Shown here: positions 9,140 to 61,408 of the stretch, one piece after another
How the letters are laid out: each line of letters opens with the position of its first letter
Numbering within the stretch: position 1 is the first letter of the stretch
DNA from: an uncultured Pseudomonadales bacterium
Lineage (GTDB): Bacteria > Patescibacteriota > Microgenomatia > UBA1400 > UBA1396
Direction of reading: 5' to 3'
Assembly: GCA_964598125.1 (NCBI GenBank)
Contig: CAZRAG010000002.1
Span: 373 to 64,372 of the forward strand
DNA length: 64,000 nucleotides
Notes under the pieces: generated by a model
Told to the model about the DNA's origin: nothing
The model's database searches: none
Seen by the model: only the letters and a program-made list of their open reading frames with translations
Translations under genes and position numbers: made by a program

Positions 9140-10091
9140 GCGAGGTCTCACCTTAGCACTTACAGCTGTTCTCTGCCAATTTTTGGCATTTCGTCCAGTG
9201 TATGCCCAAGAAAACTACCCCTTTGACCTCAGTATTTCTCCTAGTGTGGTGGAATTTGCTGTTCGACCGGGAAAATCCGTAACTCAAGCCTTTGAATTGA
9301 AAAATAATGGTTCTGTCCCGCTTAAAGTCACTCCCCAACTTCGAGACTTTCAAGCCGATGGCCTTCATGGCTTAGTTACTATTCTCCCCAGTCTGAGTTT
9401 CCCCTACGGCAAACTTGTTAACTCGGATATTGCTCTAGATCAACCCTTCACTTTGCCGGCAGGCGCAAGTCAACAACTCGTTATCAGCCTGACGATTCCT
9501 GAAAATGCCCGCGAACAAGACTGGTACCTTAGCCTGGTTGCCCGAACCCAACCGGATCTAGCCGATACCGTTTTCTCTCCCAGTTCCAACACAACCACCC
9601 AAGGAACCATTGTTGCACACATGCTTCTGCGTGTAACACAAAATAATCAAGAGCCCTTAGCCTGGAAAATTAATTTAGAGCTCCCAAGATTCATTGATAG
9701 CCTCCAGCGCGTGAAGTTTACTCCTACAGTGAGCAACTTGAGCCGAACCTACGCTATCCCAGATTTGCATGTGACGGTTCTGAATTGGCAAAAACGCATT
9801 GTGTCTGAGCAATCTGGCTTACCAGAGAGAATTCTAGCCCAGGCAGAGCGGAAAATTCCAGCGCAGCAAACGAGAAAGGATGACCCACGCTCCTATGAAG
9901 GAATTCCTTTTTCCCTCAATGAAAAGTTTGCTCTTGGCCCATATACGGTGAGAGCCAGTATTGCCAACAGCACAGGTGGTCCCACGATTGTGGAACAAGA
10001 AGTCTTTGCCTTTCCGTTCTCTATTTTGGCAGCAATCTTGGTACTCGTTGTCTTGATATGGTTCTTACGAATTTTTCAAGGCAAGATGTAG
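9108..10091 (+). CDS. secreted, C-terminally membrane-anchored hypothetical protein
   Basis: Signal peptide 'MWKKMSAAIFKRGLTLALTAVLCQFLAFRPVYAQ'. C-terminal TM 'FSILAAILVLVVLIWFL'. The longer 9060 start lies inside lgt. Confidence 0.55.
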   Translation: MWKKMSAAIFKRGLTLALTAVLCQFLAFRPVYAQENYPFDLSISPSVVEFAVRPGKSVTQAFELKNNGSVPLKVTPQLRDFQADGLHGLVTILPSLSFPYGKLVNSDIALDQPFTLPAGASQQLVISLTIPENAREQDWYLSLVARTQPDLADTVFSPSSNTTTQGTIVAHMLLRVTQNNQEPLAWKINLELPRFIDSLQRVKFTPTVSNLSRTYAIPDLHVTVLNWQKRIVSEQSGLPERILAQAERKIPAQQTRKDDPRSYEGIPFSLNEKFALGPYTVRASIANSTGGPTIVEQEVFAFPFSILAAILVLVVLIWFLRIFQGKM

Positions 10092-13107: not shown

Positions 13108-13231
13108 GTCCTCATCTTACGCCTTATCTTGACGTGGAACTCATTGTGTTTGCCTATTCTTAAAACAACAAATATGTTGGCTTAAGAATAGGGGGTGGCG
13201 TGTGAAGCCACCCCCAACGTGTTACTTTTTG

Positions 13232-14173
13232 TTACGGCGCGCTCGTGAGCATACCAATGGTCACGGGTTCGCAGTTGATACCGTACTGCTCAATCTGGCA
13301 ATCATAGACCTCGCGGCCAGGACCGGCCAGGATGAGGTTGTTGCCGCTGATGGTGGACAGGCGCTCGAGCGTCATGGGGTTGTCGTTCAGCTCGAGAAAG
13401 TACGAAATCATCGGGCCGACGTAAATCACGCCCGACTTCAGTTGCCCATCGACAATCCCGGTGATGAGTTTCCAGCGCTGGGTTTCGCGGATAACGCGGT
13501 AGTGCTCCACCGTGGTCTTTACGTTGGAGTTGCCCAGGTCTGAAACTTCAAACCCCGCCTCTTCGAATACTGGCCAGGCAGCAGGCGAGCGACGGGTTTC
13601 CATGAGGATCGCGTTGTAGATCATTACATCGCTCCCCAACATGTATCCCAACTCGTTGCCACGAATGGAGATTGGGTAAAGGTCATCATCCCCCACCAGC
13701 GATGAAATCCGCGTCCCCCGGCTGATCCGGACGTGGTTCCACACCTGGTGGTTACGATCCAGAATCAGGAACGAACCGTCCGAAAACGGCTGTTCCCACA
13801 CGCGGAACGACCCACCAGACGTGTGAATTGGGTAGACGACAGAGCCGAGCGGAGCATCAGCCAAATCTTCGAAAGTGTAGTAGCTGAGCTCGTTGCGCCC
13901 AGCAACCAACACCATTCCGGAAATTGCTGACCAAGCAAAGGCTCCCTCTCCGAGAGCCTGATACACCACTTTCCCGTCCTCGCGGACAAGAACGTGCCAG
14001 TTGGTCTCATCGACGTACTCAACGTACAGAATTCCGTCATATGAGACCTCAACGCGGAAAACCTCCCAGATTTCATCCTGGGCGGTTGCGGACGGAACGG
14101 AGTGTGCGCCGAATGCGCCAAACACCAGGGTGGCCACCATGGCCACCAGGATCAAACGTGCGATTCTCAACAT
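13232..14173 (-). CDS. secreted hypothetical protein encoded in a GC-rich (~60%) islet
   Basis: Signal peptide 'MLRIARLILVAMVATLVFGAFGAHSVPSATAQ'. Base composition is clearly higher in GC than the surroundings. Antisense ORFs here are GC artefacts. Confidence 0.6.
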   Translation of the reverse strand: MLRIARLILVAMVATLVFGAFGAHSVPSATAQDEIWEVFRVEVSYDGILYVEYVDETNWHVLVREDGKVVYQALGEGAFAWSAISGMVLVAGRNELSYYTFEDLADAPLGSVVYPIHTSGGSFRVWEQPFSDGSFLILDRNHQVWNHVRISRGTRISSLVGDDDLYPISIRGNELGYMLGSDVMIYNAILMETRRSPAAWPVFEEAGFEVSDLGNSNVKTTVEHYRVIRETQRWKLITGIVDGQLKSGVIYVGPMISYFLELNDNPMTLERLSTISGNNLILAGPGREVYDCQIEQYGINCEPVTIGMLTSAP

Positions 14174-14253
14174 CACATTCACCTCTTGGCTAAAATAGGG
14201 ATATGCACCGGATGGGTGTGTCCCCATCAAAAGCGGTATTCTGAAAAAGTTCT

Positions 14254-14301
14254 CTCAGGACACACAAAAAAGTCTCACCTGACCCTTTTGTGTGTCCTGA
14301 G
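14254..14301. promoter_or_regulatory. perfect 16-bp stem hairpin 'CTCAGGACACACAAAA...TTTTGTGTGTCCTGAG' in the 5' region of the GC-rich secreted-protein gene
   Basis: Read directly. Neither side has a T-run, so it is not a canonical terminator. Confidence 0.5.
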
Positions 14302-14478
14302 GTATGTGTAACACGTTGTTCAAGAGCTTTGCCTCTACCACTAAGGAAGTTATTTCCTCGAGTAATGACAAAACCAGACTTTCTCGATTAAGACAAGAAA
14401 GCATCTAAATATTATAGGCTAAATAAGCGAAAAATTCAATCTTATAGGATGTAAAGAGCCATTTTTGCAACAATCCTC

Positions 14479-14958
14479 TCACCGCAACAGCACCGCACCC
14501 ACATACGGCCCGGGAACTCTCTCAAGCTGTGGCACGGTTCTTTTCCCATTACTTGGAGCGGTTCCTCGTTCTTGCCTGGTAGCGGTGACCGCCGGCTGGG
14601 TAACCTGGGTAATAAGTGCAACTTTCTTTTCCTGGGAATACCATGATATCGGCGCCATTCGAACGCTATTTATAAGTCTCATCAGGGTTACAGCCGTAAG
14701 CAGCATATTTCTGTCGGCGACAATTGATTCAAACAATCGCATTGTCTCCCTGAGAAATACAGGCCTCAAGTAAGCGATTTGTTCCTGAAATTCCTGTGAT
14801 TCTGGTATTTGGGCATCGATTTCTGCTTTTTTGAGGTGAGACGACAAAATATCAAAAGCTGCCTTCTCTTGAGGAGAGTTGCCAATGCGAGAAAACCGTC
14901 GTGAAATCGAAAGAAAATACTGCAAGGTTTCTGCTTCTTGAGTCGAAACGTTTCTCAT
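14479..14958 (-). CDS. hypothetical protein. The start is set at an internal Met. The longer ORF runs back to 15198 but overlaps the upstream gene.
   Basis: Translation looks protein-like. No motif recognised. Confidence 0.3.
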   Translation of the reverse strand: MRNVSTQEAETLQYFLSISRRFSRIGNSPQEKAAFDILSSHLKKAEIDAQIPESQEFQEQIAYLRPVFLRETMRLFESIVADRNMLLTAVTLMRLINSVRMAPISWYSQEKKVALITQVTQPAVTATRQERGTAPSNGKRTVPQLERVPGPYVGAVLLR

Positions 14959-15049
14959 GGATGCCGCTTCTCTAGGCTTATAAGAAACAGTATACACACC
15001 TGGATGTGAATTCTGTAAGAAATGCTGGCGATTATTGGAGTAACGAGTG

Positions 15050-15457
15050 TTACTCAGCAGATCCAGAAGGACACGGGGCAAACTCACAATTCGGTCCAAC
15101 CCGACCAACCGAGCTACCATCCGGACAAATCTTGGCTTCCATGGTACAGGCCACACCTTCAAATGGCGGGACCACTTCCTCGCCCACAGGAAGATCATCG
15201 ATAATTACGGGTTCTTGGGCGTCAGGAGCTTGCCAAATAGGTCCGTCGTCAACAATCATGGGACAGGTAGCATCATTATTATCAATAACAATTGGACTAG
15301 GAATACTGCGCTGTCCAAGATAAAAACCACCCAAACCAGTGGCGAGCCAAAGAATCACACCACACAACACAACCACCACAGTTCGAGCCAAGTTTGCCGA
15401 TGAGGTGATCATCTTTTTTGGTTGATCGCTTTGAGCAGAAGGTATCATGTGCATCAT
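15050..15457 (-). CDS. membrane-anchored hypothetical protein with a Cys-containing C-terminal domain
   Basis: N-terminal TM 'VVVVLCGVILWLATGLGGFYL'. C-terminal 'CPDGSSVGRVGPNCEFAPCP'. Confidence 0.45.
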   Translation of the reverse strand: MMHMIPSAQSDQPKKMITSSANLARTVVVVLCGVILWLATGLGGFYLGQRSIPSPIVIDNNDATCPMIVDDGPIWQAPDAQEPVIIDDLPVGEEVVPPFEGVACTMEAKICPDGSSVGRVGPNCEFAPCPSGSAE

Positions 15458-15661
15458 TATACAGACTGTCGAGATTCAACTCTGGAAGAGATCGGCTCTG
15501 TCAGCCAGATTGTTACAGTAGTTTCCTTCTGGAGTAGTCTGACTTTCTCTGATCTTGCTATAGTAGATCTGCCGCACTTTTTCGCTGTTGGATAAACAAG
15601 CAGAAGAATAAATCATCAATGCAACACCTCATACCACGCGCAATTCAAATCAGACAACTCT

Positions 15662-17170
15662 ATGAGCAACGAGAGAAATAAAATATCGACACTCTTGAGG
15701 CAAGAATCAGGCGTGCGTAAGAATGTCACGATAGAAAAAATCATTCTATGGGTCGCAATCTTATCTGGCTTTTGGTGGCATCTCCAAGCAGCGTGGCATC
15801 AGCAACTGTTTGGCGATGAAGTTCATAGTCTTTTCTTCTTTGCGAACAACTCCTGGATTTCACTCCTGCAAAGACCCGTTGAGCCCATTCATCCTAATGG
15901 TTATTATCTTTTGCTCAAATTTTTGTACACCCTCACCCCTTCAGTTTTGGCATTACGTTTCTGGATGGTAGGGTCTTTTGTGGCAAGTTGTTGGGTACTC
16001 TCCCGAATCCTCAAACAACTCCGCTTTCCCTCAAACATGAGTTTGGCCATAGTTGCCTTGTGGAGTAGTTCAGCCTACATCTGGCATTTTTCCTTCCAGT
16101 TGCGCATGTATGGTCCGGCCATGACGCTGCTTTTGCTGTCACTACTGACGCTCATGCAAAAAAAATACTGGTGGTCGATGGTGGTGGATTGGCTGCTCCT
16201 TTTTTTGGCCTATGGCTCGATTGTGGGAATTGTGGCCAAATGGTTGGCGTGGTTTTTGTTCCGTGACACGAAGCTGCAAAAAGCACGTAAATTCTGGGTT
16301 GCCAATGATTTTGCGCCAGCGGCCTTGAGCCTTTTGCCCGTTTTCGTGGTTGTTATCCAATTCTGGCAACAACAAGCAGCAATTGATACCTCCTATTTAT
16401 ATTGGGTACATCAACCAGTATTCGCTGACTGGAGTTTGGCCTTTCTTTCCTTTTTTGCTGGGCTTTTTTTGCCTTACTTTGAAGGTTATAGCGCCCTTTC
16501 CCAGCGTTGGATGCAGTTGGGTGCAATCGCCAACTGGGGATTCTTGCTGGCCGTTTTTGGGGGCTTTGCTTTTGCCTATCGCCAGAAAAAAATTATCGTC
16601 CAGTGGTGGAAACAACGTACTACCAATGAACGACTCCTGTTACTCATAAGTCTCATTACCATCACGCTCTACACCACCATTTTTGGCTGGTCACTCTTCA
16701 CTCAAGGTCATATCTTTCATGTTCGCCAGCTCTTCCCGGTCGCCGTGATTGGTTGGCTTTTTATGGCTTGGTTGCTGAACCAAATACACAGGTTTAGGCC
16801 GGTAATAACCTTTGTTTTAGTAACCGGAATCCTTGCTATAAATCAGACAAGCATTATCAAAGATACTTGGGCGGATAACCAGGCGTATCCCCATCACTTT
16901 CAGCCACAACCTGGTACTCCCGTGATTGCCAGCCAGACAGATATTGAACTCATCTACAAGCAATGCCAGACATTTACTTGGAACGACGTGGAAAAAGCCT
17001 GCGCCCAACACCACATTTTTTTGCTGGAAAAGTTTGAGAATACTCAAGCCCTTCCTTCAACTTGGTGGCTCACAACCCGAGCCTATCAAACCTGGCCAGA
17101 AAAAAATCAGTTGATTCACTGTTCGGCTATTTCTCTTGACTTTTGGGAATGCCGACAACAAGAGTTTTAG
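15662..17170 (+). CDS. large multi-pass membrane protein, putative GT-C type glycosyltransferase (PMT/ArnT-like)
   Basis: 502 aa. 'LFGDEVHSLFFF' acidic DE motif after the first helix, as in GT39/GT83. Many hydrophobic segments. Confidence 0.5.
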   Translation: MSNERNKISTLLRQESGVRKNVTIEKIILWVAILSGFWWHLQAAWHQQLFGDEVHSLFFFANNSWISLLQRPVEPIHPNGYYLLLKFLYTLTPSVLALRFWMVGSFVASCWVLSRILKQLRFPSNMSLAIVALWSSSAYIWHFSFQLRMYGPAMTLLLLSLLTLMQKKYWWSMVVDWLLLFLAYGSIVGIVAKWLAWFLFRDTKLQKARKFWVANDFAPAALSLLPVFVVVIQFWQQQAAIDTSYLYWVHQPVFADWSLAFLSFFAGLFLPYFEGYSALSQRWMQLGAIANWGFLLAVFGGFAFAYRQKKIIVQWWKQRTTNERLLLLISLITITLYTTIFGWSLFTQGHIFHVRQLFPVAVIGWLFMAWLLNQIHRFRPVITFVLVTGILAINQTSIIKDTWADNQAYPHHFQPQPGTPVIASQTDIELIYKQCQTFTWNDVEKACAQHHIFLLEKFENTQALPSTWWLTTRAYQTWPEKNQLIHCSAISLDFWECRQQEF

Positions 17171-17931
17171 GAAAATATTTCTTGAACCACCGGATGAAGA
17201 CTCTGATTTGTCGCAATCAGCGAAGTGGTTGCCAAAGTGAGTGGCTGGCCACGAAGATCGGTCACCTGACCGCCAGCCTCTTGCACGATCAAACTCGCCG
17301 CGGCCACATCCCAAATTTTAATGGCGGATTCCACAACAACATCAACCTTCCCTTGCGCAAGCAGATGATACGCCCAAGCATCACCAAACCCGCGATGACC
17401 TCGCGTGGCGTTTTCCAGTTGCAAAAGAGCATCAAGGGCATTTCTTTTTTGGAAACAGGTCAGACTCCCATAACTGAGAAAGGCCTCATTCAAACGATCC
17501 ACAGTAGAAACATGCACGGGTTGGTCATTCAAAAAAGCTCCCTGGCCCTTTTGTGCATACAACAGTTCCTGCATAGCTGGGGCATTGGAAACGCCCACAA
17601 TGACTTCGCCATCTTTCATGAGCGCCAATTGGGTGGCGAAGAGCGGAATCTGCCGAATATAGTTTTTCGTGCCATCGATTGGGTCTATGATCCACAGATA
17701 TTCTGAGTCAGTCGAACTTTGACCACTTTCTTCGCCCAAAATAGCATGATTGGGAAAATACTCAAGCACATGGGAACGAATAATGAGTTCGGCTTCCTGG
17801 TCAGCAATGGTGACGGGTGATTGGTCCGGCTTTAACGTCGCTCGCGTTTGAGGAGTATAGTATTGGTTGATTACGGATTCCGCTGCCTTCACGGCTTCAA
17901 GAGCGACGGTAAGAAATTGCGAGTATGCCAT
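17167..17931 (-). CDS. inositol-monophosphatase family phosphatase (SuhB/HisN-like)
   Basis: 'LWIIDPIDGTKNYI' and 'WDVAAASLIVQEAGGQVTD' match IMPase motifs. 254 aa. Confidence 0.85.
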   Translation of the reverse strand: MAYSQFLTVALEAVKAAESVINQYYTPQTRATLKPDQSPVTIADQEAELIIRSHVLEYFPNHAILGEESGQSSTDSEYLWIIDPIDGTKNYIRQIPLFATQLALMKDGEVIVGVSNAPAMQELLYAQKGQGAFLNDQPVHVSTVDRLNEAFLSYGSLTCFQKRNALDALLQLENATRGHRGFGDAWAYHLLAQGKVDVVVESAIKIWDVAAASLIVQEAGGQVTDLRGQPLTLATTSLIATNQSLHPVVQEIFS

Positions 17932-17969
17932 GAAAGCATTGTAGCAAGAGCAATATGCCAGATTTTTTA

Positions 17970-18344
17970 CTATTGGGCGGGAATGAGATTTTGGTGATCA
18001 TTGGGTAATGATGGCCAACGAACCGTAAGAATAACCGAGTCTTCTTCAATCACGTATTTATGCTCAACTTGAGGTTGAGAAATGTAGTAATCGCCAGGCT
18101 TGAGTACCATTTCTTGCTCGCGAAAAATCATGCGCATCTGCCCTTGAACTACCAAGCTCATGGTGGTGGCGGTGGCGCACACCGACCACTCGTCACGGCG
18201 CTCTCCCTTCTGGTGAATTCCCCACTTCATCTCAACATCCTGGGAAAATCGCAAGGAATCTTTATCCTCAATAAAATGACCGATAAACCAACCACGTTGA
18301 GCGGTTGATTCGTTGTTCACGTTACCAAAATAAACGGATTGCAT
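17970..18344 (-). CDS. cupin-fold protein (probable)
   Basis: 124 aa. Two-motif cupin-like pattern 'WGIHQKGERRDEW...H' and 'LKPGDYYISQPQVEHKYVIEEDSVILTV'. Confidence 0.5.
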   Translation of the reverse strand: MQSVYFGNVNNESTAQRGWFIGHFIEDKDSLRFSQDVEMKWGIHQKGERRDEWSVCATATTMSLVVQGQMRMIFREQEMVLKPGDYYISQPQVEHKYVIEEDSVILTVRWPSLPNDHQNLIPAQ

Positions 18345-18408
18345 AGGTGTACTATAGCAATTGAGAAGTATAAAGAATAAATGCAGGAAGATATTCTAAA
18401 ATTTTTCC

Positions 18409-18600
18409 TTAGGCTTTCCGAAAATATTCATTCCCTTTAGCTATTTCGACGAGTTCAGCGGACCGAACATCAACGCCATGTATGAGGTAATACCATTGCT
18501 GGTAAAAATCTTGCCAACTGATTTTATCTATTTGATATAAAAAATCCTTATAATAAATGTAGTCACCCTCTAAAAATTTTGGCTCAGGTTGGTAAGACAT
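18409..18600 (-). CDS. small hypothetical protein in an AT-rich segment
   Basis: 63-aa ORF, Tyr/Trp-rich. Confidence 0.3.
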   Translation of the reverse strand: MSYQPEPKFLEGDYIYYKDFLYQIDKISWQDFYQQWYYLIHGVDVRSAELVEIAKGNEYFRKA

Positions 18601-18643
18601 ATATTAATATTTTACAAATAATTTGTTCTCAGGGATGCGAAGT

Positions 18644-20503
18644 TTATACTTCACTGTTCAAGAAGCGACTCCCTAATGGTACCTGAGCTAAAGTTGCTTC
18701 AAGTCTCCGGTATGCTTCACCAACTTCCGGATCGTTAAAAGGTGACTCAACCACAAAGTCAAAACTTTCTAACCAATGTTTCTCTACCTCACCTTTGTCG
18801 CCATAAATCATTTGATTGCCCCAAGAATCAACATTGCTACGAAATCGATCATCAAACCCTGGGGTAGCGTAGAGTTTTGTCCGAACACGACACCATCTTT
18901 CATTGGGTTCTTTAACTCCACCATCATCAAAATCACCTAGAGAAATACAGAGAATCTTCCCACGCACCTCGGCTGGTACAACCATTTCAATATATCCATT
19001 TCCCGTAGCGACCTGCACGGTGCTTGCTTCAGGGAAAATAATATTCATAACAAAACCTTCGTCACGCTCATATTCATTAGAATATTGTGGATGAAAGCGA
19101 TAGTACGTAAACATGTGTGGCCGATTGACAACAACTCTTGAGAGTGAATCAACAAAAATAAAGTCTTCTCCTGGTTTTGCTGAATACCTTTTTTGGATCT
19201 GCTCTTGACTCATTATTCTTAAAATCTCGCCAGCTTTAGGACCACCGTCTCGTTCTGTTCTTAAAAGCAATTCAAAAAAATAATCCGCCGGTACAAAGGT
19301 TTCTGAGGGTTTGCAGGTTTCCAAAAGTTGAGGCGAAACTCGTCCGGTTTCCACTAAATCGGTATAACCTTGGCAGGCGGAACACTTAAAAAAGGAGCGC
19401 TGTCCCTCATATCCTCGAATCGCCGCTCCGCAATGAGAGCACTGAATACTCATTCCTTGGCTCAGCTTCTTGTCTAGAAAGTAATTATCATCAATAAGTC
19501 GAGCTTCTTGTTGATCAACCTTGGGGTGGTCACGGAAAGATGCCTCTGGTCCGACGTTGTCAGAACCCGCATCAATAATGGCGTTAATGCGCTGCAATAA
19601 TTGATCTTCTTGCGCGTCTAAGGCTCTAGCCAGATCATAGTATTCTTCTCTTCTGGCGTTACCGTTAAGTTGCCTCTCGGTAGGTGCTTGACGATAAGAA
19701 GAAAAAACCATTTCATCACTTGTTGTTACGTCGGTGTTTTCCTCTGGCCAAGCATGCATCATCTCAGTAAAATCTGACACATTCCGGGGAGCACGCATGA
19801 AACGCTTAATTGAAAGTTGATAATAATACTCATTTTTTTCTTCTTCAGCTGTAAGCTCTCGGCCTGCTCGCTTGGCCTTTTCTCTTCTTGAATATTCGGC
19901 TTCATAATCTCTCTCCCGAACAATGGTTACTAATGAAAAATAGCCACCAGGGTGCGCAAATATACAACCAATTTTGGGACGAGTTCTGCCATAGATTTCT
20001 TCATTCATAAAAAACCACTCTGCATCAGGAATGTTAGTGATTCCATCGATAAGTGATTGACGTAGGCGAACTTTTTCCCGTATGTCTACTGCTTTTGTTT
20101 CAACTTCTGCATCTGATTTTGTGTGTGATGCCGTTAACCAGTAAAAACTTCCCTCAATTACAGAATGAGACAAATGAGACAGATGAATTCTTCGTCGGTT
20201 CAATAAATCAAGAGCAGGATACTTTGCCAACCACTCAGGGTGATTTAGACACTTCTGTAAATGAGTTCGATCAATGAGCATTTGGGTACGCGCCTCATCC
20301 CGAGGCATAAGTTCATAGTGACAACTGGGACAAAGACTACTTTGTCCAGATTCAACAAATCCCAAAATATCGCCGCAGTTTGGACAGGTCATGGCTTGGT
20401 TGGGTAAAACTCCCTCCGCAAAAGGAAGAATGAATTGAATATCTGGTTGGGTACTGGTATCAAGATGAGTACGTTGTTCAGATCTATTGGGTAAACCTGG
20501 CAT
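18644..20503 (-). CDS. hypothetical 619-aa protein with two Cys4 zinc-ribbon motifs
   Basis: 'CPNCGDILGF...CPSCHYEL' and 'CSHCGAAIRGYEGQRSFFKCSACQGY'. AT-rich context. No other family recognised. Confidence 0.6.
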   Translation of the reverse strand: MPGLPNRSEQRTHLDTSTQPDIQFILPFAEGVLPNQAMTCPNCGDILGFVESGQSSLCPSCHYELMPRDEARTQMLIDRTHLQKCLNHPEWLAKYPALDLLNRRRIHLSHLSHSVIEGSFYWLTASHTKSDAEVETKAVDIREKVRLRQSLIDGITNIPDAEWFFMNEEIYGRTRPKIGCIFAHPGGYFSLVTIVRERDYEAEYSRREKAKRAGRELTAEEEKNEYYYQLSIKRFMRAPRNVSDFTEMMHAWPEENTDVTTSDEMVFSSYRQAPTERQLNGNARREEYYDLARALDAQEDQLLQRINAIIDAGSDNVGPEASFRDHPKVDQQEARLIDDNYFLDKKLSQGMSIQCSHCGAAIRGYEGQRSFFKCSACQGYTDLVETGRVSPQLLETCKPSETFVPADYFFELLLRTERDGGPKAGEILRIMSQEQIQKRYSAKPGEDFIFVDSLSRVVVNRPHMFTYYRFHPQYSNEYERDEGFVMNIIFPEASTVQVATGNGYIEMVVPAEVRGKILCISLGDFDDGGVKEPNERWCRVRTKLYATPGFDDRFRSNVDSWGNQMIYGDKGEVEKHWLESFDFVVESPFNDPEVGEAYRRLEATLAQVPLGSRFLNSEV

Positions 20504-20601
20504 ATCTTTATTGTACTGATAAAAACTTTTTTTACTTTATGAGCTATGAATGTACAAATTGCCTTAATGCAAGTCTCTTCTAAAACACTCTCACCCGTCT
20601 T

Positions 20602-21015
20602 TTATTCTTGCTCCGTTGGGGTGAGTTTTATCTTCATGGTTTCAGGATTAATGGAAACTGAAACGACTAAACGCTTGTTCTGTTTTTTGTCTTTCAGAAT
20701 TATGGCGTCGCCATCCTGAAGCTTCATTGCTGAAAAATATTTACTTTCTTTTCCAGAATTTGCTTGCTGATGCGATATTGCAATATCGCCGACCTCATTA
20801 CCAAAAGCGGTCAGTGGCAAAACGATTTGCCATTCCTCAATTTTATCTGGACTCATTGTATCCATTCCCACAGGACTAACGGTAAAAACAAGTCTTCCCT
20901 TTGTGTCATGAAACTCAAAAGTTCCATCACTTTCATGGTTGTCTTTTATCTCTGGTAGATGTTCCTCACTTGGAGGGGATGGCAACGATAATCTATCTAA
21001 TGTATCTGCTGACAT
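20602..21015 (-). CDS. hypothetical protein
   Basis: 137-aa ORF directly downstream (minus sense) of the tRNA-Trp 3'-end repeat copy. Confidence 0.45.
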   Translation of the reverse strand: MSADTLDRLSLPSPPSEEHLPEIKDNHESDGTFEFHDTKGRLVFTVSPVGMDTMSPDKIEEWQIVLPLTAFGNEVGDIAISHQQANSGKESKYFSAMKLQDGDAIILKDKKQNKRLVVSVSINPETMKIKLTPTEQE

Positions 21016-21066
21016 AGTTTCAAGCTTACTATTAAGTTTTTTAAAGAGATAGTAAGAAAAAGTATT

Positions 21067-21085
21067 GCAGGCCTACAAGGACTCG
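21067..21085. repeat. 19-bp direct repeat of the tRNA-Trp 3' end ('GCAGGCCTACAAGGACTCG'), att-like
   Basis: Identical 19-mer at 21221-21239, which is the tRNA 3' end. Confidence 0.75.
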
Positions 21086-21221
21086 CGACTGTGCTCGTTT
21101 CCACTCGCTCCGCATGCACTAGCCAGGCACTCGTTGATACTCGTGCTTGGCGGCGGAACGAAGGCAGCCTTCCATGACCAGTCTCCACAAAAAAATCCCG
21201 TGTGGGGATTTTTTTGGAGAG

Positions 21222-21293
21222 CAGGCCTACAAGGACTCGAACCTTGACGAAGGGTTTTGGAGACCCTCATGCTACCAATTACATCATAGGCCT
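21222..21293 (-). tRNA. tRNA-Trp (anticodon CCA)
   Basis: Manual fold: acceptor AGGCCTA/TAGGCCT, D-stem ATGT/GCAT, anticodon stem AGGGT/ACCCT with loop CTCCAAA, T-arm CAAGG-TTCGAGT-CCTTG. 72 nt, CCA not encoded. A terminator hairpin 'AAATCCCGTGTGGGGATTT' follows. Confidence 0.8.
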
Positions 21294-21529
21294 AGGTAGT
21301 CAGTTGTTTGGGACTTTTGGCAGTCGCCCTGCAGACAATCCAGAAAACAACAATGGTGAGATTGTATCATCCAGACTAAAAACTGTCTCTTCACAGCTTG
21401 GAAATCTGGCTGCCATTTATGGCCCTCACAATAAAAAACAATCAGCTTGAGAAATTCTTCTGGTACAATAGGACTTCATGCGAGCGTGATTTTATGGGCG
21501 TTTTTGCCCAAGGAAATACCTCTCCACGT

Positions 21530-23080: not shown

Positions 23081-25201
23081 CTAAGGATTCAATTCTCGCC
23101 AACTATACTGTGGCCGCTTCACCGCTTCAGGGGCATTCTTCAAAAAGTCAGGTCGATAGCGGAAATATTCGGTTGGATTAGAGTTGTTTAACCGGCGACG
23201 GGTGACACCGTCATCGTAGTCACGAGCCAACACAAATCCTTGCCAACCAACAAAGGTACCTTCACCTACGAATTTTTTATCACCGCCAGCGGCTTCACCA
23301 CGGCTGGGAGTTTCAATCTGACGGTTAGCCACAAAAACACCTTCGACCACGGCCGTATCAAGAGCCGGATTATCATGGCCTAGTTCTTCATCAAAAATAA
23401 TGTCACCACTGGCCACAATCATCAGAAAACCGCCATCGGCTACTATGGTCCGGGCGTTCACATTCACATTACCGTTCACCACCACCACAATTTTTTGGGT
23501 GTCGGCGACATTCCAGTTGGTTCCAATGGTGAGATCTCCGTTATGGAAGTAGGCTTCGGCCCCCTCGTTGACGGGATTGCCTGTGGGCTTCGTGGCGTTA
23601 CTTGCCGTGGCACCAAAATCACTTTCTGGACTGGCAGGCAGCTTGAGGATTCGCTTGAAGTACGCATAATCCTGGTGACTGGGCGTGTCGTTCAGACGAG
23701 CGAACCAGTTGTGATTATGTTCATCGATTTGATCCGTCTGGATTCCACCTACATAACTGGTGTCAATACCGCCGCCACCGGTGAGTACGTATCCTTCGGT
23801 GGTGGTGCCATTTTGATTGGTGATGAGGTTGGGGTTACACGCCGGCAATGTACAGTATGGTGAAATCAAACTTTGAATCACGGTACCGGTGGTTCCATAC
23901 GCAGCCACTGGTCCACCCTCGGTTTGGAACCAGGGGTCGGTAGCGTCCAGAACATAGAAGTTCACATTCGCACTCGGCGCGTTGATGCCACTAGGGTACA
24001 CACAGCCAACCGGGCAGGAACAGAGCCAGAGGTCGGAGTTTTCGATTTGCAATTGAGCGTTGTTTTGGCCGGTGGTGGTATACGGTAAACGGAGGGAATA
24101 GGAAGTTCCCGAGGCAACCGCACTATCAATGTAGGTTCCAGAATCGTGGCCAGTGATTGTTAAGGCTCCAGTGGTATCTGGCACGGCTGTAGTTGGTCCA
24201 GTACACAATGATCCAGATATTGCGGCAGTGGCATTGGTGTCATAGTAAATATTTCCACTGACGGGAACAGCAACTTCAAAACTGACATAGGCGCTCCAAG
24301 CCGAAGTGTCCGTACCACAACTCGTATTCTGGGCTCTGACTCGAGCAGAATAGTAGCGACTGGTTGGTGCAAAGGAGTAAGAAGTACCTGTTACTGTATA
24401 GCTCTGGACAGGTGAATCAGCGGGGTTTGTTGATGGATGAAGCTCAAGGTTATAACGCTCGGCTTTTCCAGGAGCAGACCACATTATGATAATTTGCCCG
24501 GCAGCATCGGATTGAATCATTTGTCCTGAGGCAGAGGGAATATAGAACACTGGGGTAGATGGCGCCCCATCGTCTGTATTTGAACAGGCACCACTGCAAC
24601 CATCAGATTGACCACAATAGGGAGCGGAACAGCTTGGACTACAAGGAGGAGGGATATATCGACAAGTTCCAGGGTCCCAAGTACAAACACCTTCCGGAGT
24701 GGTGACACATTCACCTGATGGATGGCTTCCAGAGCCAGGTGGGTTTTCATCACAGTTTCCGCAAGAACCACAGCCTCCCCAGCCTGGCTGAACAGTTGGT
24801 TGTGGCTCACCAGGATCACCTGTTGGTTGTGGGGGTGGAGGATATACGGGAGCGCTACAGCCTCCTCCCGTGCGATCACAACCAAAACTAATATGTTGAA
24901 GTTCCTCACAAATAATTGCACAACTATTCACAACTGGTGGATATGACCCCGGTCCACAAAAAGAGCATGGGTAATAACTTTTCTGAACTTCAACACAAGT
25001 CCCTGCTCCTAAAGGTCCACAACGTGATCCTAATGGAGAGCATCTTTCATTTGTGCTTGTACACTGGTTCTGATAGCAAGATACACCACCAGAGCAAGAT
25101 TGAGCAAAAACTTCATTGGATGAAAAGAATAACGACGAGATTGTAACAAATAGTAATAGAAGCGCAAAACAAATACGCATATATCTAATTACTATACACA
25201 A
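23081..25201 (-). CDS. large secreted Cys-rich surface protein (N-terminal Cys-rich region, Pro-rich linker, Ig/FN3-like middle, beta-helix-like C-terminal region)
   Basis: Signal peptide 'MRICFALLLLFVTISSLFFSSNEVFAQ'. Many CxxC-type Cys clusters. 'IVVVVNGNVNVNARTIVADGGFLMIVASGDIIFD' looks like beta-helix repeats. Confidence 0.6.
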   Translation of the reverse strand: MCIVIRYMRICFALLLLFVTISSLFFSSNEVFAQSCSGGVSCYQNQCTSTNERCSPLGSRCGPLGAGTCVEVQKSYYPCSFCGPGSYPPVVNSCAIICEELQHISFGCDRTGGGCSAPVYPPPPQPTGDPGEPQPTVQPGWGGCGSCGNCDENPPGSGSHPSGECVTTPEGVCTWDPGTCRYIPPPCSPSCSAPYCGQSDGCSGACSNTDDGAPSTPVFYIPSASGQMIQSDAAGQIIIMWSAPGKAERYNLELHPSTNPADSPVQSYTVTGTSYSFAPTSRYYSARVRAQNTSCGTDTSAWSAYVSFEVAVPVSGNIYYDTNATAAISGSLCTGPTTAVPDTTGALTITGHDSGTYIDSAVASGTSYSLRLPYTTTGQNNAQLQIENSDLWLCSCPVGCVYPSGINAPSANVNFYVLDATDPWFQTEGGPVAAYGTTGTVIQSLISPYCTLPACNPNLITNQNGTTTEGYVLTGGGGIDTSYVGGIQTDQIDEHNHNWFARLNDTPSHQDYAYFKRILKLPASPESDFGATASNATKPTGNPVNEGAEAYFHNGDLTIGTNWNVADTQKIVVVVNGNVNVNARTIVADGGFLMIVASGDIIFDEELGHDNPALDTAVVEGVFVANRQIETPSRGEAAGGDKKFVGEGTFVGWQGFVLARDYDDGVTRRRLNNSNPTEYFRYRPDFLKNAPEAVKRPQYSWRELNP

Positions 25202-25221
25202 GAGAAGTAAGTAATTGGAAG

Positions 25222-27303
25222 TTAATTATTTACACTGTAATCGCTATAGTCTACAGGAAACTCCATTGGAAACTGCGATTCATTTGCCTCTAAATAACTA
25301 ATATCAGCATCAGTTGTTAGTAGTGACAATCCAGCTCCAGGATTATTTGTTATTGAATTCACTGTTTGCCCCCAAATATCGACCGGTCTCTTCAGATTCT
25401 CATCTGAACTAAAACCATAGGTGATTGCTTGTCCCAGTATGTTCATGACATCACCACCATACATTCCAAATTCGTCGTCAAATACGACATTAAGTTGCAA
25501 TACATTAGTATCAGGGTTATAGTTCCGGTAAACTGCAAATCCATTCTTGTTATAAACTGGCAGAAAACCACTGTGATCTTCCATTTCGCCACTAATCACG
25601 AGTATTTGAGGAGGAGTTGTAAGTGCATCAGGAATTGAATTGTAGTTTTCAAACAGCGCTTGAATTTCAGGTAGTATTACGTTCAAAATTACCTCTCTTG
25701 TACGAGGCGTTTGGACAAGAAAGTAACCATTTATTCCATTTCTTTCTTCTATGAATTCTTGCCTTTCCTCATCCCCACCAGGATTGTAAACTAGCGGTAT
25801 CCCGACAAATCTCCCTTCCTCGTCAATATAACCAAACTGGATGTAATCAGGATTTTGTAAGGCTGCCTCTAATTCAGGAGCAAGCTGCATTTCTAATAAT
25901 GCCTCAGGATTGGTACTGGCAACTTCAAGCCAGTTCGTATTGAGAGCAGTCATAGTATTGCTTTCGGCTGGAGTCTCAACCGCGGCGAGAAACTCAGCCT
26001 CGGTTGTAATAAGCAACATAGAACCGTCTTCTTGAGGGAGGTAGAAAGAAAATGGTCCATTGGGAATTATTTGAACTCGGAACACACCATGACCATTGAT
26101 GACCACCTCTTGAGCAACATCACCATTTAAGTCAGCAGGCTGAATGGTATTTCCTTCTAAATTAGTGATTCCTCTCATTTGAAAAAATAAGGCTAATGCG
26201 TGTTGATTTTCTGCACTAAGAGCAGACCATTGAGCTTCTGCTGGATTAGCAGCATGCTCAAGCATATATTCATCAACAAAAGCAACTTCTAATGGTTTAT
26301 CATCACCGCCTTCCTGCTCAAGACCACCTTGGTCACCGTCAGGTTGTTGCGAGGCATCACCAGAACCGCCATCACCGGTACCAATCCCACCATCACCGCC
26401 ATGAGGATCTCCATCACCATCTGGAGGAATATTGGTTTCAGGATTAACGTTAACATGCATGGCTAAGGCGATACCTTCATCGCCAGGCCCTTGCTGAGGC
26501 ATTCCAATATCAAGAGTACTGGCCTGTCCATCTGGATCATTGTGACGACCTTGCAGTTGAACGGTATACCAAACTTCCTCTTCTGGAAGAGGCACACCAG
26601 AAGAGAATGAGGCTCCAGGCCCAACTGGCCGGACAATGAAGTCACCCTTTTCAAGCAGAGCATCAACTTCTTCCTGAGACATCAGTCGACCATCGGGAGT
26701 GTAAAAAAGCGCTGAGACGACATTCTCACCACGACCAAGATCTTGATCATTCACGTAGGCAACAATTTCCTCTGAGGCAACTTCGGAAGAGGCCGGAACT
26801 TCGGGAAGTTCAGCCGTTCTTTGTGGTTGTTTGGGTACCAGACGCCATTCACCGTCATCTGGAGGCATGAAAGTAACATCATCGAGTACCACTGGTTCAG
26901 ACAATGGAATAACTTGAAAAACGTTCTCTGCCATTAAAGAGTTGAGTCGCGTTCGAGAGACGAGTTCGCCATCCAGATCATAGTAGTTGATCGAGTAGCG
27001 ACCATCACCGAGATCAATTCTTTGAACATAGCCTGCTAATTGGCCAAGTTTTTCCGCATTTCTGGTTGTTTCTGGGGAACCAGCAGGAACAGTATTTCCT
27101 GGATTTCGAAGTTCGGCAAGTTCAGATTGACTTAAGGCTTGCACTTGTCTGCCAACAGGCAAGAGATACTCACGAAATTTCGCAGTATTACTGGCTTCAG
27201 CTTTGCTGCCACCACCAATTCCTAAAGCAGATCGGACCAGTTCGACAAAAATAAAACTAACAGCTCCAACTCTGAGTCCTGTTCTTTCAATTGATCTTGG
27301 CAT
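25222..27303 (-). CDS. large hypothetical protein with an N-terminal membrane anchor and an acidic Gly/Asp-rich segment
   Basis: 693 aa. 'GLRVGAVSFIFVELV' anchor. 'DGDGDPHGGDGGIGTGDGGSGD' low-complexity tract. Forms an operon-like pair with 23081-25201. Confidence 0.6.
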   Translation of the reverse strand: MPRSIERTGLRVGAVSFIFVELVRSALGIGGGSKAEASNTAKFREYLLPVGRQVQALSQSELAELRNPGNTVPAGSPETTRNAEKLGQLAGYVQRIDLGDGRYSINYYDLDGELVSRTRLNSLMAENVFQVIPLSEPVVLDDVTFMPPDDGEWRLVPKQPQRTAELPEVPASSEVASEEIVAYVNDQDLGRGENVVSALFYTPDGRLMSQEEVDALLEKGDFIVRPVGPGASFSSGVPLPEEEVWYTVQLQGRHNDPDGQASTLDIGMPQQGPGDEGIALAMHVNVNPETNIPPDGDGDPHGGDGGIGTGDGGSGDASQQPDGDQGGLEQEGGDDKPLEVAFVDEYMLEHAANPAEAQWSALSAENQHALALFFQMRGITNLEGNTIQPADLNGDVAQEVVINGHGVFRVQIIPNGPFSFYLPQEDGSMLLITTEAEFLAAVETPAESNTMTALNTNWLEVASTNPEALLEMQLAPELEAALQNPDYIQFGYIDEEGRFVGIPLVYNPGGDEERQEFIEERNGINGYFLVQTPRTREVILNVILPEIQALFENYNSIPDALTTPPQILVISGEMEDHSGFLPVYNKNGFAVYRNYNPDTNVLQLNVVFDDEFGMYGGDVMNILGQAITYGFSSDENLKRPVDIWGQTVNSITNNPGAGLSLLTTDADISYLEANESQFPMEFPVDYSDYSVNN

Positions 27304-27570
27304 TATATCCTCTTTCTTTATTTTCTAGGATGATCATTAGGTAAAAAAAGATCGCCATTGCTGTGGCTCTCTGACCTGGCTTAGGTTAGAGGTTGGAGCC
27401 ACCGCTAATAGCGATTTACACATCCTTATCTCGAATTATAGCAAACAACCTATAAATTGATAAGTACTAGGGATAAGTGATAAGTGTAAGAAGCTCGTAA
27501 TAAGCCTTGTTCTGTTATGAGATTACTTAGCAAAATCCCTTCAACATAATTGTTGTACACTTATTCTGTC

Positions 27571-28563
27571 ATGCGTTTACGAATCTTTCTTGTAATTCTT
27601 ACTCTCACAGTTATTGCTGGCTACGTTGGCTGGAAATATTTCCTCAATGGATCCCGAAAGCAAATCTATTCATTAAATGAGACCTCCTTTTTAGCTGAAG
27701 ACGCTGAAAAACGAGTCAACACTGAATATCTCCACCGTACACCCATGCCTATTTCAATTGCCAACCTTGAGGATCCCTTTTTTATTGAACCTTGCTTTTT
27801 TTGGAAAAAAGATTCGTGTTTGCCAAGCTTTGTTGTTGAAGCCTCGACTTTTCGTTTCTCCTCAGGAAAATTTCCAGACGAACAATTGAATCCCTTCCAG
27901 TTGTACGTTGCCATGGGTGATATTGTGGGCAAACCTGACAACATCCGAGCATATTTCGCTCGACAAGCAAAACCAGCCGAAAAATATGTTCAATTTGTCA
28001 AAGATATTCAGGGAAGAAGCCTAGAGAATCAGTTAACGCCTTCTCTAACGTATGCCTACTACGATTACCTCTTTAGCAAAAAGGAAATGCGATCATCTAA
28101 GGACTTCCCAAATCCGTCAGTTGGGATCAATTTGATTAGCCTTGGTATGTATATTTTTGAGAAAAAAGGTATTTCGCAAGCCGAGCCAATTCTCGAAGAG
28201 CCAGAAGATTGGAGCTCTTATGGGAAATCACTTTTGTATGCCACTTGGTGGGGTTTCCTTGATAATAATCTTGTTGAAACTGCTTTTGCTGATAAGGGAA
28301 AATTTGAATCATTCTATCTTCAGCGCTTTAGTAAAAAAAGTGATGCCATAACCTATGTCGTTGCTGTTGAACCTGACTCAATTACCGAAGGAGAGTATTT
28401 TTCTGTTGACACTGATATAACTGGATTAGCTCTTTGTTATCAATCAAAAGCAATGATCTGTCAACTTGAAACAGCTGAGGATCAATCTACTGGTACTGCC
28501 CGTTGCCGACCGGCAACTTTCCTTAATACTTTATGTGGTGATACTTTATTGCCACTGTATTAA
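27571..28563 (+). CDS. membrane-anchored hypothetical protein
   Basis: 'MRLRIFLVILTLTVIAGYVGWKYF' signal anchor. ~330 aa. Confidence 0.5.
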   Translation: MRLRIFLVILTLTVIAGYVGWKYFLNGSRKQIYSLNETSFLAEDAEKRVNTEYLHRTPMPISIANLEDPFFIEPCFFWKKDSCLPSFVVEASTFRFSSGKFPDEQLNPFQLYVAMGDIVGKPDNIRAYFARQAKPAEKYVQFVKDIQGRSLENQLTPSLTYAYYDYLFSKKEMRSSKDFPNPSVGINLISLGMYIFEKKGISQAEPILEEPEDWSSYGKSLLYATWWGFLDNNLVETAFADKGKFESFYLQRFSKKSDAITYVVAVEPDSITEGEYFSVDTDITGLALCYQSKAMICQLETAEDQSTGTARCRPATFLNTLCGDTLLPLY

Positions 28564-56930: not shown

Positions 56931-56951
56931 TTTGTGGACCCAAGGAGATTC
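56931..56951. repeat. 21-bp direct repeat of the tRNA-Ala 3' end plus trailer ('TTTGTGGACCCAAGGAGATTC'), att-like
   Basis: Identical copy at 57164-57184, overlapping the tRNA-Ala 3' end. Confidence 0.75.
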
Positions 56952-57167
56952 AGAGCTTGCTCGCTCATTTCAGCATAACTTCGTTACTGGCTGATTCGCT
57001 GCGCTTCCTCAGATAGTTGAGCGTAATGCGCCTCGCGGTATCAGTTTCTCTTTCGAATACCCGCTCGTGTGCATTACTTTGCTCAAGTATCGAACTCGCC
57101 TACGGCTGAATTCACCTCCAGCGGGATTCACAAACAAAAAATCCGCCCATGGCGGATATTTCGTTTG

Positions 57168-57240
57168 TGGACCCAAGGAGATTCGAACTCCTGACCTCTT
57201 CATTGCAAATGAAGCGCTCTACCAACTGAGCCATGGGCCC
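57168..57240 (-). tRNA. tRNA-Ala (anticodon TGC)
   Basis: Acceptor GGGCCCA with a G3:U70 pair, anticodon loop 'TTTGCAA', T-loop GGTTCGAATCC. 73 nt, CCA not encoded. The terminator hairpin 'ATCCGCCATGGGCGGAT' + T-run follows on the minus strand. Confidence 0.85.
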
Positions 57241-57377
57241 AACCACCGAGTTGTTCTTTTAGATATTTTCTCTTTTTGACAAAATCTAAAACAATTTTCT
57301 TCTCCATCAAAGTTTTTACTTTACAACGAATCTCAAGGCTTTAGCCTTCGTGAGGTGTAAGGGGAAAACTTTGATTG

Positions 57378-57451
57378 TGAGAGTACCTGGACTCGAACCA
57401 GGGACCTCTGTCTTATCAGGACAGCGCTCTAACCAACTGAGCTATACTCTC
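57378..57451 (-). tRNA. tRNA-Ile (anticodon GAT)
   Basis: Acceptor GAGAGTA/TACTCTC, anticodon loop 'CTGATAA', T-arm CCTGG-TTCGAGT-CCAGG. 74 nt. Confidence 0.85.
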
Positions 57452-57564
57452 GTTTTTCACCAGACCAGTGATAACAATCACCTCTGATAAAAGGCGATAC
57501 AGCGTATTGTAACAAAAGTTTTCTAAAATGGGAGAGAGGTTGATCGGGAAAGGAAAAACAACTC

Positions 57565-57623
57565 AGAGTAAGGAGTCTCCTTGATCGAGAGTGCCTCTCG
57601 GCCCTCGATCAAGGAGACTCCCT
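57565..57623. repeat. family-B palindromic element copy ('GAGTAAGGAGTCTCCTTGATCGAG-loop-CTCGATCAAGGAGACTCC')
   Basis: Read directly. 17-bp perfect stem. Confidence 0.75.
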
Positions 57624-57665
57624 CTTGATTCGCCCAGACTTTTTCTGCCATTATGGTGAAAGCCT

Positions 57666-59411: not shown

Positions 59412-59413
59412 GT

Positions 59414-60694: not shown

Positions 60695-60699
60695 AAAAA

Positions 60700-60763
60700 G
60701 GAAGGAGTCTCCTTGATCGAGGGTGCTTGAAGACACTTGATCAAGGAGACTCCTTACTCAGAG
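60700..60763. repeat. family-B palindromic element copy ('AAGGAGTCTCCTTGATCGAG-loop-TGATCAAGGAGACTCCTTACTCAGAGG'), followed at 60778-60794 by the flank motif 'CTGATCAACCTCTCTCC'
   Basis: Read directly. Confidence 0.75.
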
Positions 60764-60809
60764 GATCTTTCCCTCACCTGATCAACCTCTCTCCCGCTAC
60801 AATATACCC

Positions 60810-61337: not shown

Positions 61338-61408
61338 TTTGTGGTTACAAACACCATTTTTTCAAATCTGATCTCTTGACTATTGCCTTTTAACACCTGC
61401 ATACTTGT

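Follow-up and report, generated by a model that had tools for sequence, protein, structure and literature searches.

Displaced fragments of tRNA genes and variable loci beside tRNA genes are already well known. Cis-mobilizable elements (CIMEs), described in work on integrative and conjugative elements (ICEs) of Streptococcus thermophilus, are att-flanked remnants of integrative elements that have no integrase and serve as landing pads for accretion; the described ones are kilobases long and bear genes. Site-specific insertion into a tRNA gene gives a direct copy of the 3' part of the tRNA, and the regenerated tRNA gene (tDNA) and the displaced fragment bound the insert (PMC4383910). A "T-stem region" class of tDNA att sites is counted by Islander, which covers 1836 islands (PMC4383910). 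Tandem integration at tRNAs and partial tRNAs scattered in islands are documented in another streamlined genome, that of Prochlorococcus, where newer tycheposons push older ones inward (bioRxiv 10.1101/2020.12.28.424599). Here we describe a 135-bp gene-less module directly downstream of the tRNA-Trp gene in an uncultured, Woesebacteria-like member of the Patescibacteria. The window analyzed is 64,000 nt of contig CAZRAG010000002.1 (assembly GCA_964598125.1), and all positions given are those of the window unless another locus is named.

The 19-mer GCAGGCCTACAAGGACTCG is present in exactly two copies in the window, at positions 21067–21085 and 21221–21239, in the same orientation. No such pair is expected by chance (100 shuffles), and no further copy is found in the window with up to three mismatches. 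The tRNA-Trp(CCA) gene is on the minus strand at positions 21221–21293 and has no encoded CCA (ARAGORN; Rfam RF00005 at 21222–21293, 60.7 bits). With the tRNA placed at 21221/21222–21293, the proximal copy represents the last 18 nt of tRNA-Trp plus one nt. It takes in the 3' part of the T loop, the 3'-side strands of both stems (T and acceptor), the discriminator base and the base that follows it. In the orientation of the tRNA, the 19-mer reads CGAGTCCTTGTAGGCCTGC. The distal copy, also on the minus strand, is a displaced ("echo") copy of this 3' end. Both the direct duplication and the assignment of positions 21221–21239 to the tRNA end plus one nt had been put forward in an earlier note on this DNA; the duplication is exact and non-random, and ARAGORN and Rfam agree on the tRNA. 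The identity block, from inside the T loop to one nt past the tRNA end, fits the "T-stem region" att class. The distal copy does not have the 5' half of the T arm and is therefore only half of a normal attB. The pair encloses 135 bp without a gene, and an AT-rich segment farther left lies outside it.

The 135-bp interval has four parts, given here in the direction of the tRNA. A bidirectional intrinsic terminator (A7, a GC stem and T7; positions 21183–21221) is apparent from the inverted repeat, minimum free energy folds and alignment. It is kept in L009 and L010, two related metagenomic genomes. The module supplies the terminator of tRNA-Trp. The next three parts are on the minus strand. The segment GGTCATGGAAGG (21168–21179) is complementary to the distal copy with G.U pairs and a bulge, as determined by RNAalifold and pair counts. 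An indel-rich, poorly conserved hairpin part of the spacer (21123–21167) shows 51–72% identity, and a 37-nt conserved core TAGTGCATGCGGAGCGAGTGGAAACGAGCACAGTCG (21086–21122), which has CGAG motifs in the same orientation, is 86–89% identical in L010 and L009. The terminator takes up about 39 of the 135 nt; the remaining 96 nt include the 12-nt complementary segment and the core, both kept in the relatives, and the earlier statement that nothing but a terminator hairpin separates the copies is incorrect.

The CGAG motif is present five times in 120 nt, in one orientation and at spacings of 10, 26, 10 and 12 nt. A cluster of this kind was reached in 2 of 5000 shuffles and is the only one in the 64 kb, and the motif positions are kept in L009 and L010. 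At spacings of about 10 and about 26 nt, the motifs resemble phased protein-binding sites.

Several other identities for the spacer were considered and rejected. It does not represent a small open reading frame (ORF): frames are not kept across the three genomes (window, L009 and L010), both the window and L010 lack a start codon in the best plus-strand frame, and there is no conserved ORF on either strand. It is not a degenerate tRNA-Trp duplicate, as Smith-Waterman comparison with the first 54 nt of the tRNA is no better than with shuffled sequence in the three genomes. A tandem duplication, or a miniature inverted-repeat transposable element with a target-site duplication, does not fit: nothing is repeated beyond the 19-mer, and no terminal inverted repeats are seen at the ends of the 135 bp. 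No second copy of the spacer is present in the 421 kb of sequence compared. The tRNA itself is the only Rfam match, and the spacer has none to the Rfam 15 covariance models at E values up to 10.

The comparison loci come from genome and metagenome scans. A conserved 460-aa gene beside tRNA-Tyr has relatives solely in Patescibacteria (Microgenomates/Woesebacteria-type) genomes, with amino acid identities to the window copy of 86% in L009, 75% in L010, 68% in L002 and 59% in L003 and L007. Neutral sites are near saturation, since third codon positions are only 40–51% identical between the window and L009, L010 or L006, and the intergenic region between tRNA-Trp and tRNA-Tyr is 58% identical. In L009 and L010 the core, by contrast, has the 86–89% identity given above and the copy approximately 78%, with low values and many indels in the 5' part of the spacer. 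This conservation points to purifying selection on the core and copy. A blastn alignment of window positions 21067–21298 to L010 positions 340–582 shows 81% identity and stops at the first base of the distal copy (21067 = L010 340). L009 has the terminator and the 37-nt core in common with the window, then a 57-nt insertion and a 13-nt exact copy of the tRNA end, GAGTCCTTGTAGG. In L010 there is an A-to-G change in the acceptor strand of tRNA-Trp that is matched by a G in the distal copy; we give this little weight because there are three changes in that copy and coincidence is estimated at approximately 5–10%. The DNA past the distal copy is unrelated in the window, L009 and L010. The earlier note had named a duplication shared with relatives in conserved synteny as an observation that would count against its reading of an integrated element. 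The first part is present, as the module is conserved in L009 and L010 above the level of neutral sites, but the synteny beyond the copy is not kept.

The same layout is found at other tRNAs. In a scan of 28 distinct tRNAs of the sampled Patescibacteria loci for exact direct 3'-end copies of at least 12 nt, no more than 300 nt downstream, seven have such a copy; the 28 show no inverted copies downstream and no direct copies upstream. The seven are tRNA-Trp in the window (19 nt), L010 (16 nt) and L009 (13 nt), tRNA-Ala in the window (18 nt, positions 56934–56951), tRNA-Gln in L021 (18 nt), and tRNA-Tyr in L028 (16 nt) and in L009 (12 nt, plus further degenerate copies). The order in each case is the tRNA, a strong intrinsic terminator, a pairing segment, 70–180 nt, and a copy that begins in the T loop. 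Immediately before the copied block, every one of these tRNAs has the universal GGTTC(G). The interval between the copies, 135 bp at tRNA-Trp, is 109–216 nt in the other modules. The second module in the window (56934–57240, minus strand) consists of tRNA-Ala(TGC) at 57167–57240, its terminator, a complementary segment at about 57113–57132, and the exact 18-nt copy after approximately 215 nt of spacer; it is not present in the relative L002. At tRNA-Trp in L010 (read by eye) and tRNA-Gln in L021 (from called-gene coordinates) the stop codon of a convergent gene is at, or a few bases from, the distal copy, as would result from insertion of the module where a tRNA end directly adjoined that gene. 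A limited literature search turned up no account of a conserved, gene-less 135–215-bp module that contains its own pairing partner for the tRNA fragment and is found at roughly one in four of the Patescibacteria tRNAs sampled. A compact conserved module at this frequency is of interest in ultra-small bacteria whose gene gain and loss is poorly understood. As a separate observation, L009 positions 9755–10000, downstream of tRNA-Tyr, contain three partial 3'-end copies in 250 nt, two of them preceded by CGGGTA.

The module has similarities to several known systems. Like CIMEs, it has attL- and attR-like flanks, no recombinase and a position at the edge of variable DNA; two flanking att copies without a recombinase of their own, the feature that marks CIMEs, are present here. 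It differs from CIMEs in being 135 bp long and gene-less, and viral contigs yielded no cognate autonomous element whose ends match. With Islander-type islands, whose T-stem-region att sites are those of tyrosine integrases, the module shares an intact tRNA, a direct downstream copy of the 3' part from the T loop to the tRNA end, a new terminator and a variable hot spot. It differs in its short interval without an integrase or gene, in the segment complementary to the fragment, and in its conservation across genomes that are saturated at neutral sites. In terms of the Islander definition, the intact tRNA and the direct 3'-side fragment are present, whereas the integrase in the interval and the kilobase-scale island are absent (PMC4383910). 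The tycheposons are alike in the streamlined genome, the hypervariable islands beside tRNAs and the partial tRNA footprints, but carry tyrosine recombinases and cargo (bioRxiv 10.1101/2020.12.28.424599); none were found here, and the partial copy is merely 135 nt from the tRNA.

We tentatively favor the reading, with a confidence somewhat short of even, that the modules are minimal gene-less att-flanked elements kept or spread by tRNA-targeting recombinases. The 19-mer pair would be the regenerated tRNA-Trp 3' end and its displaced copy, a junction of the type that arises when DNA inserts site-specifically in a tRNA T loop. The inserted unit would comprise, in the tRNA direction, the bidirectional terminator, the 12-nt complementary segment, the variable hairpin, the 37-nt CGAG-rich core and the displaced copy, and the inserted terminator would now end the tRNA transcript. 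Modules of this kind (attL, arms and attR, with no integrase of their own) may have been left behind, or propagated in trans, by tRNA-targeting recombinases of Patescibacteria; we infer this recombinase origin, as well as continuing activity, if any. The core and complementary segment would serve to bind a recombinase or to fold the site, and the distal copy marks the inner border of a hypervariable accessory locus. Because regenerated tDNA and displaced fragment mark the ends of an insert (PMC4383910), the insert here would be the 135-bp module and not the AT-rich segment, and taking the displaced fragment as an island border would mis-assign 2.7 kb of genes. A site-specific T-loop insertion fits the start of the block in the T loop, the direct downstream copy, the supplied terminator, the break of homology at the copy and the abutting stop codons. 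The attL/attR signature proposed in the earlier note is thus retained to the extent that a direct copy from T loop to 3' end fits insertion into a tRNA gene, but the insert would be 135 gene-less bp, and the duplication is no fresh scar. Features unlike those of a passive scar are the uniformly small size, the presence of a complementary segment, the conservation of the core and the recurrence at other tRNAs. Taken together with the fit to T-loop insertion, they lead us to prefer the minimal att-module reading. If the modules are recombination sites, they would explain the seeding of hypervariable loci beside tRNAs in genomes nearly devoid of mobile-element genes.

A number of observations weigh against the minimal att-module reading. 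No full-length element with the same ends was found, and scans of viral contigs gave chance or unrelated matches only. No integrase or recombinase ORF or domain is present among the ORFs tested between 12.4 and 21.2 kb. The same tRNA is present without the module in L003 and L007, where the flanks are too diverged for alignment and do not provide an empty-site comparison. A passive scar does not explain a core kept far above neutral sites in three host lineages. Classical att arms need no segment complementary to the core, yet here such a segment is present with compensatory changes and invariant G.U pairs. The spacers of different tRNAs have no significant sequence similarity, so that the modules are not shown to be one element family, and a common family behind all of them was rejected on that basis. 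The sole shared piece is the 10-mer CGAGCGGGTA, present in the tRNA-Ala module of the window (about 57058–57067) and the tRNA-Tyr module of L009, and is suggestive only.

Two candidates for a phage attP were rejected in the viral contigs. Four contigs (L012–L015, related phage contigs from IMG/VR) match the spacer core over 20–22 nt; the run of about 22 nt, GCGGAGCGAGCGGAAGCGAGCG, is common with the L010 core and is inside a coding stretch (AERAEAS, in the context ..LAERAEASVAS..), and was judged a chance match. Three contigs match the tRNA-Trp end, by chance or as a jumbo-phage tRNA-Gln.

Secondary structure modeling predicts a long-range helix in the module. RNAalifold with the window, L010 and L009 sequences pairs GGTCATGGAAGG (21168–21179, just past the terminator) with CCTTGTAGGCC of the distal copy (21070–21080). 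In the three genomes 93% of helix cells are paired, vs 30–60% with the partners slid. There are 10 pairs and two compensatory changes (GC to UA in L009 and UA to CG in L010), and the observed covariation is equaled in 47 of 500 shuffles, a weak control with three sequences. Two or three of the pairs are G.U, which are mismatches on the opposite strand; invariant pairs that work on the tRNA strand only are a hint of single-strand folding. In the Trp, Ala, Gln and Tyr modules, which are independent of one another, the copy has its best partner at spacer positions 33–37, immediately past the terminator. When the 28 tRNAs are ranked for this pairing, the six that bear modules (including the three related tRNA-Trp genes) take places 1, 2, 4, 5, 7 and 8. 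When corrected for the choice of the best of many windows, the pairing energies have p values of 0.08–0.27 and are individually not significant. No structure of the core is supported, as every predicted pair there is invariant.

These properties bear on the possibility that the module is a structured RNA or a cis-acting RNA element on the tRNA strand, with a closing helix of GGUCAUGGAAGG and CCUUGUAGGCC. We consider this rather improbable, though a serious rival to the minimal att-module reading. The helix would reproduce the coaxial acceptor/T-stem helix with the tRNA's own 3' strand, and the 70–180-nt insert would replace the T loop. Such an RNA could be a mimic of the tRNA top half, acting as a decoy or substrate for tRNA-binding enzymes, or a three-way switch; the latter is conceivable because, across the terminator, the genuine tRNA 3' end is a second possible partner of the complementary segment. 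The kept helix with its strand-specific G.U and U.G pairs, the constant position and high rank of the pairing in independent modules, and purifying selection on core and copy with no conserved ORF on either strand all favor an RNA. The modest covariation and pairing statistics, the invariant core and the lack of an Rfam family match do not. There is also a strong terminator between the tRNA and the module and no evident promoter, and transcription of the module would therefore need read-through. Genes downstream are on the same strand as the module in only three of six cases, so that a leader function is not general. The predicted helix is similar to known tRNA-like RNAs (the tRNA-like domain of tmRNA, viral tRNA-like structures and mascRNA) in reproducing the acceptor/T-stem 3' strand, but the module differs in having no T loop, CCA or Rfam match, and in the tRNA-Ala module the mimicry leaves out the final acceptor pairs. 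If the modules are RNAs, they would represent a new tRNA-mimicking family.

The position of the complementary segment also allows a purely mutational origin. Template switching or snap-back synthesis at the perfectly palindromic terminator could have copied part of the tRNA end twice, first inverted and then direct, as a non-functional by-product. In every module the complementary segment is a few bases past the palindromic terminator, and could lengthen its hairpin by way of the real tRNA end. This origin explains neither the 70–180 nt of unrelated spacer nor the constant start of the copied block in the T loop, nor the retention of the copy and the core identity where neutral sites are near saturation, and we regard it as very unlikely.

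One more reading is held to be possible but doubtful. The modules may represent an undescribed class in Patescibacteria, a "tRNA 3'-end echo hairpin" located behind tRNAs, in which the copy pairs with the post-terminator segment, around the 70–180-nt insert, and the hairpin has a function of its own. Such a hairpin might act as a structured RNA, either imitating the tRNA top half or sensing the tRNA, or as a recombination site, folded from a single strand, from which hypervariable loci are seeded. The T-loop GGTTCG would be a fixed recognition motif, and the next 16–19 nt would be tRNA-specific. Folded recombination sites are known in the integron attC and CTX-phage attP(+) (XerCD) systems. 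The module would resemble these sites in an imperfect inverted repeat, with a bulge and mismatch, that is predicted to pair around a loop varying in length and sequence; one arm is identical to the chromosomal target, and the pairing would be kept by compensatory change. The difference is that the target here is a tRNA end, and that the integrated geometry leaves the terminator as the sole "cargo". No GTTRRRY or dif-like box was seen by eye at the module ends or in the 37-nt core, where no pattern search for boxes was run, and no integron integrase or other recombinase-type ORF is seen in the window around the module.

The module is at the edge of a hypervariable tract (13130–21066) that extends from conserved response-regulator and PRA-PH-like genes to the distal copy, as determined by tblastx synteny with L002, L003 and L009. 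From the histidine-kinase/response-regulator genes up to tRNA-Trp, the window, L002, L003 and L009 all differ. L002 is colinear with the window at 4.6–12.4 kb, and tRNA-Trp follows after approximately 0.5 kb. L009 shares window positions 10.9–13.1 kb and the inositol monophosphatase gene (17167–17931), the sole tract gene in common, and other genes occupy 5.7 kb ahead of its tRNA-Trp. In L003 the locus holds 8 kb of genes that differ again. These differing layouts make all of the DNA from about 13.1 kb to the distal copy variable, with the pieces at 13.2–17.2 kb and 17.97–21.07 kb found in the window only. The locus is equally variable in L002 and L003, which have no repeat at all. In keeping with the reading of the earlier note, the 3' flank of tRNA-Trp is a variable, accessory locus, with different genes in each relative and the AT-rich genes missing from the closest ones. 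Within the tract, a cupin-like 124-aa gene of ordinary GC (17970–18344, minus strand; Pfam Cupin_2 27.1 bits against a cut-off of 27.2) is not at the locus in relatives.

The segment at 18350–21066 begins 52 nt past the distal copy and has 40.1% GC compared to 47.1% for the window, lower than every sliding window of equal size. It has three ORFs, all on the minus strand: a 63-aa ORF (18409–18600) with no family, the 619-aa ORF described below, and a 137-aa ORF (20602–21015) with no family and no homolog in the related loci compared. An exact cluster look-up of the small ORFs gave no match. The 619-aa and 137-aa ORFs have a GC3 of 0.33 (z about -1.7). The earlier description of a visibly AT-rich stretch with three hypothetical genes is accurate, and the GC and codon-usage check it called for does show a deviation, though the genes at 25222–27303 and 27550–28563 are as low in GC. 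The 2.7-kb, 40%-GC segment is lineage-specific accessory DNA that fills the variable locus and is not framed by repeats.

The earlier note had suggested that this segment may be a decayed or miniature integrative island. Such an island could have entered by way of tRNA-Trp, for example by accretion at the distal copy with later loss of the far att site and the integrase. The lowest GC of any 2.7-kb stretch in the window, two ORFs without a homolog in the libraries searched and a third in a family of ten clusters, a start close to where similarity to the relatives stops, and the hypervariable locus are all in keeping with an island, as is a member of the 619-aa family (P0002) that has, at a distance of 1.5 kb, genes for a serine recombinase and a tyrosine integrase beside tRNA-Ser. 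The segment, however, is outside the repeat pair, and the distal copy is only half of a normal attB. The note had advised a search left of 18.3 kb; no third att copy was found left of 21 kb with up to three mismatches, in repeat families or with a 22-nt tRNA-end probe, to which the next-best matches, at 15057 and 8027, are 14/22 and no better than chance. The stretch at 12.4–21.2 kb showed no integrase remnant, relatives are variable at the locus without any repeat, and two more window genes are equally AT-rich. The L019 family gene lies 5' of tRNA-Ser, outside the integrase-bearing side. The island is therefore an unlikely account of the segment, and the minimal att-module reading is confined to the 135 bp.

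The 619-aa protein (18644–20503, minus strand) has two C4 zinc ribbons, CPNCG..CPSC (C40/C43/C60/C63) and CSHCG..CSAC (C355/C358/C374/C377). As the earlier note had stated, it belongs to no recognizable family. Zinc-ribbon matches in Pfam, NCBIfam, PHROGs and PADLOC are below threshold (Pfam DZR 19.1 bits against a cut-off of 27.3, others lower), no family is assigned in these libraries, and a sequence search of the Protein Data Bank (PDB) gives generic zinc ribbons only. A word-indexed search of 5.8 billion clusters returned the protein itself alone, and a profile search of that database returned only the query. Exhaustive phmmer searching of 1.84 billion representatives gave nine relatives at 22–37% identity (E values 1e-99 to 3e-5), which makes a family of ten 50%-identity clusters among these representatives. 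The family alignment shows near-invariance of the four second-ribbon cysteines, an invariant D382 and, in the full-length members, the first ribbon. The AlphaFold model made with this alignment has a pLDDT of 76 and a pTM of 0.77, and Foldseek finds no fold match in the PDB (best E 0.25) or BFVD (best E 0.08). The profile and structure searches that had been recommended thus leave the protein as a very rare family with a confident and unmatched predicted fold. Nucleic acid binding by the ribbons would be a guess from the sequence.

A TnpB or Cas12-type nuclease was considered for the 619-aa protein since the module has the look of a "scaffold plus 16–19-nt target copy". This was rejected: the zinc ribbon alone matches weakly (E 0.06–0.9), and a RuvC fold with an inserted zinc ribbon is not seen, as the pLDDT 76 model has no PDB match at E < 0.25 by Foldseek.

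Seven genomic contexts of the family show no conserved neighbor. Recombinase genes are within 2 kb in one of the seven; the other six are among ordinary chromosomal genes with no mobility genes nearby, which gives little support to the earlier suggestion that the protein is cargo of a former element. A tRNA is within 1.5 kb in four of seven contexts (including L021, L019 and L023), a weak association. In L021 (9665–11926) the family gene starts 138 nt from the tRNA-Gln that has the echo module. The 619-aa protein is an accessory gene and not a core gene of the lineage; by the earlier note, a conserved core gene would have told against its reading.

Other observations concern the tRNA-Trp locus and the variable tract. 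The tRNA-Trp locus beside the 460-aa gene has two very different tRNA-Trp sequences among related genomes, AGGCCTATG... and AGGGGTGTCGG..., in a comparison of L002, L011, L017 and L018 with the window, L003, L009 and L010; this suggests that the tRNA gene itself was replaced in one clade. Four contigs from independent assemblies of a 59% relative (L027–L030, at position 1) each end inside tRNA-Trp just before the T arm, which fits strain divergence, or the start of a repeat, at that point and proves nothing. A 332-aa ORF (13232–14230, minus strand) in the window-only part of the tract has 56% GC and a GC3 of 0.70 (z +2.8), the opposite of the AT-rich segment; it has an apparent hydrophobic N-terminal stretch and no Pfam family. 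Adjoining ORFs of 706 and 693 aa (23081–27303, minus strand) also have no Pfam family. The 706-aa ORF is cysteine- and proline-rich and has a homolog beside the 460-aa gene in L006, and the 693-aa ORF has a GC3 of 0.31, as low as the AT-rich segment.

Farther along the window, four tandem paralogous giant ORFs of 1739, 1794, 1781 and 1797 aa are present at 34414–56556 on the plus strand. The first and last were scanned with Pfam, and in both a DUF2341 domain accompanies six Laminin_G_3 (concanavalin-A-like lectin) repeats; the four are probably surface proteins. In the region 57167–64000, the 3' end of the 16S rRNA (63700–64000, minus strand) is 6.2 kb from tRNA-Ile and tRNA-Ala, and no 23S rRNA follows tRNA-Ala inside the window. 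The gap contains four plus-strand ORFs of 581, 426, 175 and 640 aa, of which the 175-aa ORF has an HD domain. An HD-domain gene is present in the same 16S-tRNA gap of L002, where the gap is merely 1.4 kb.

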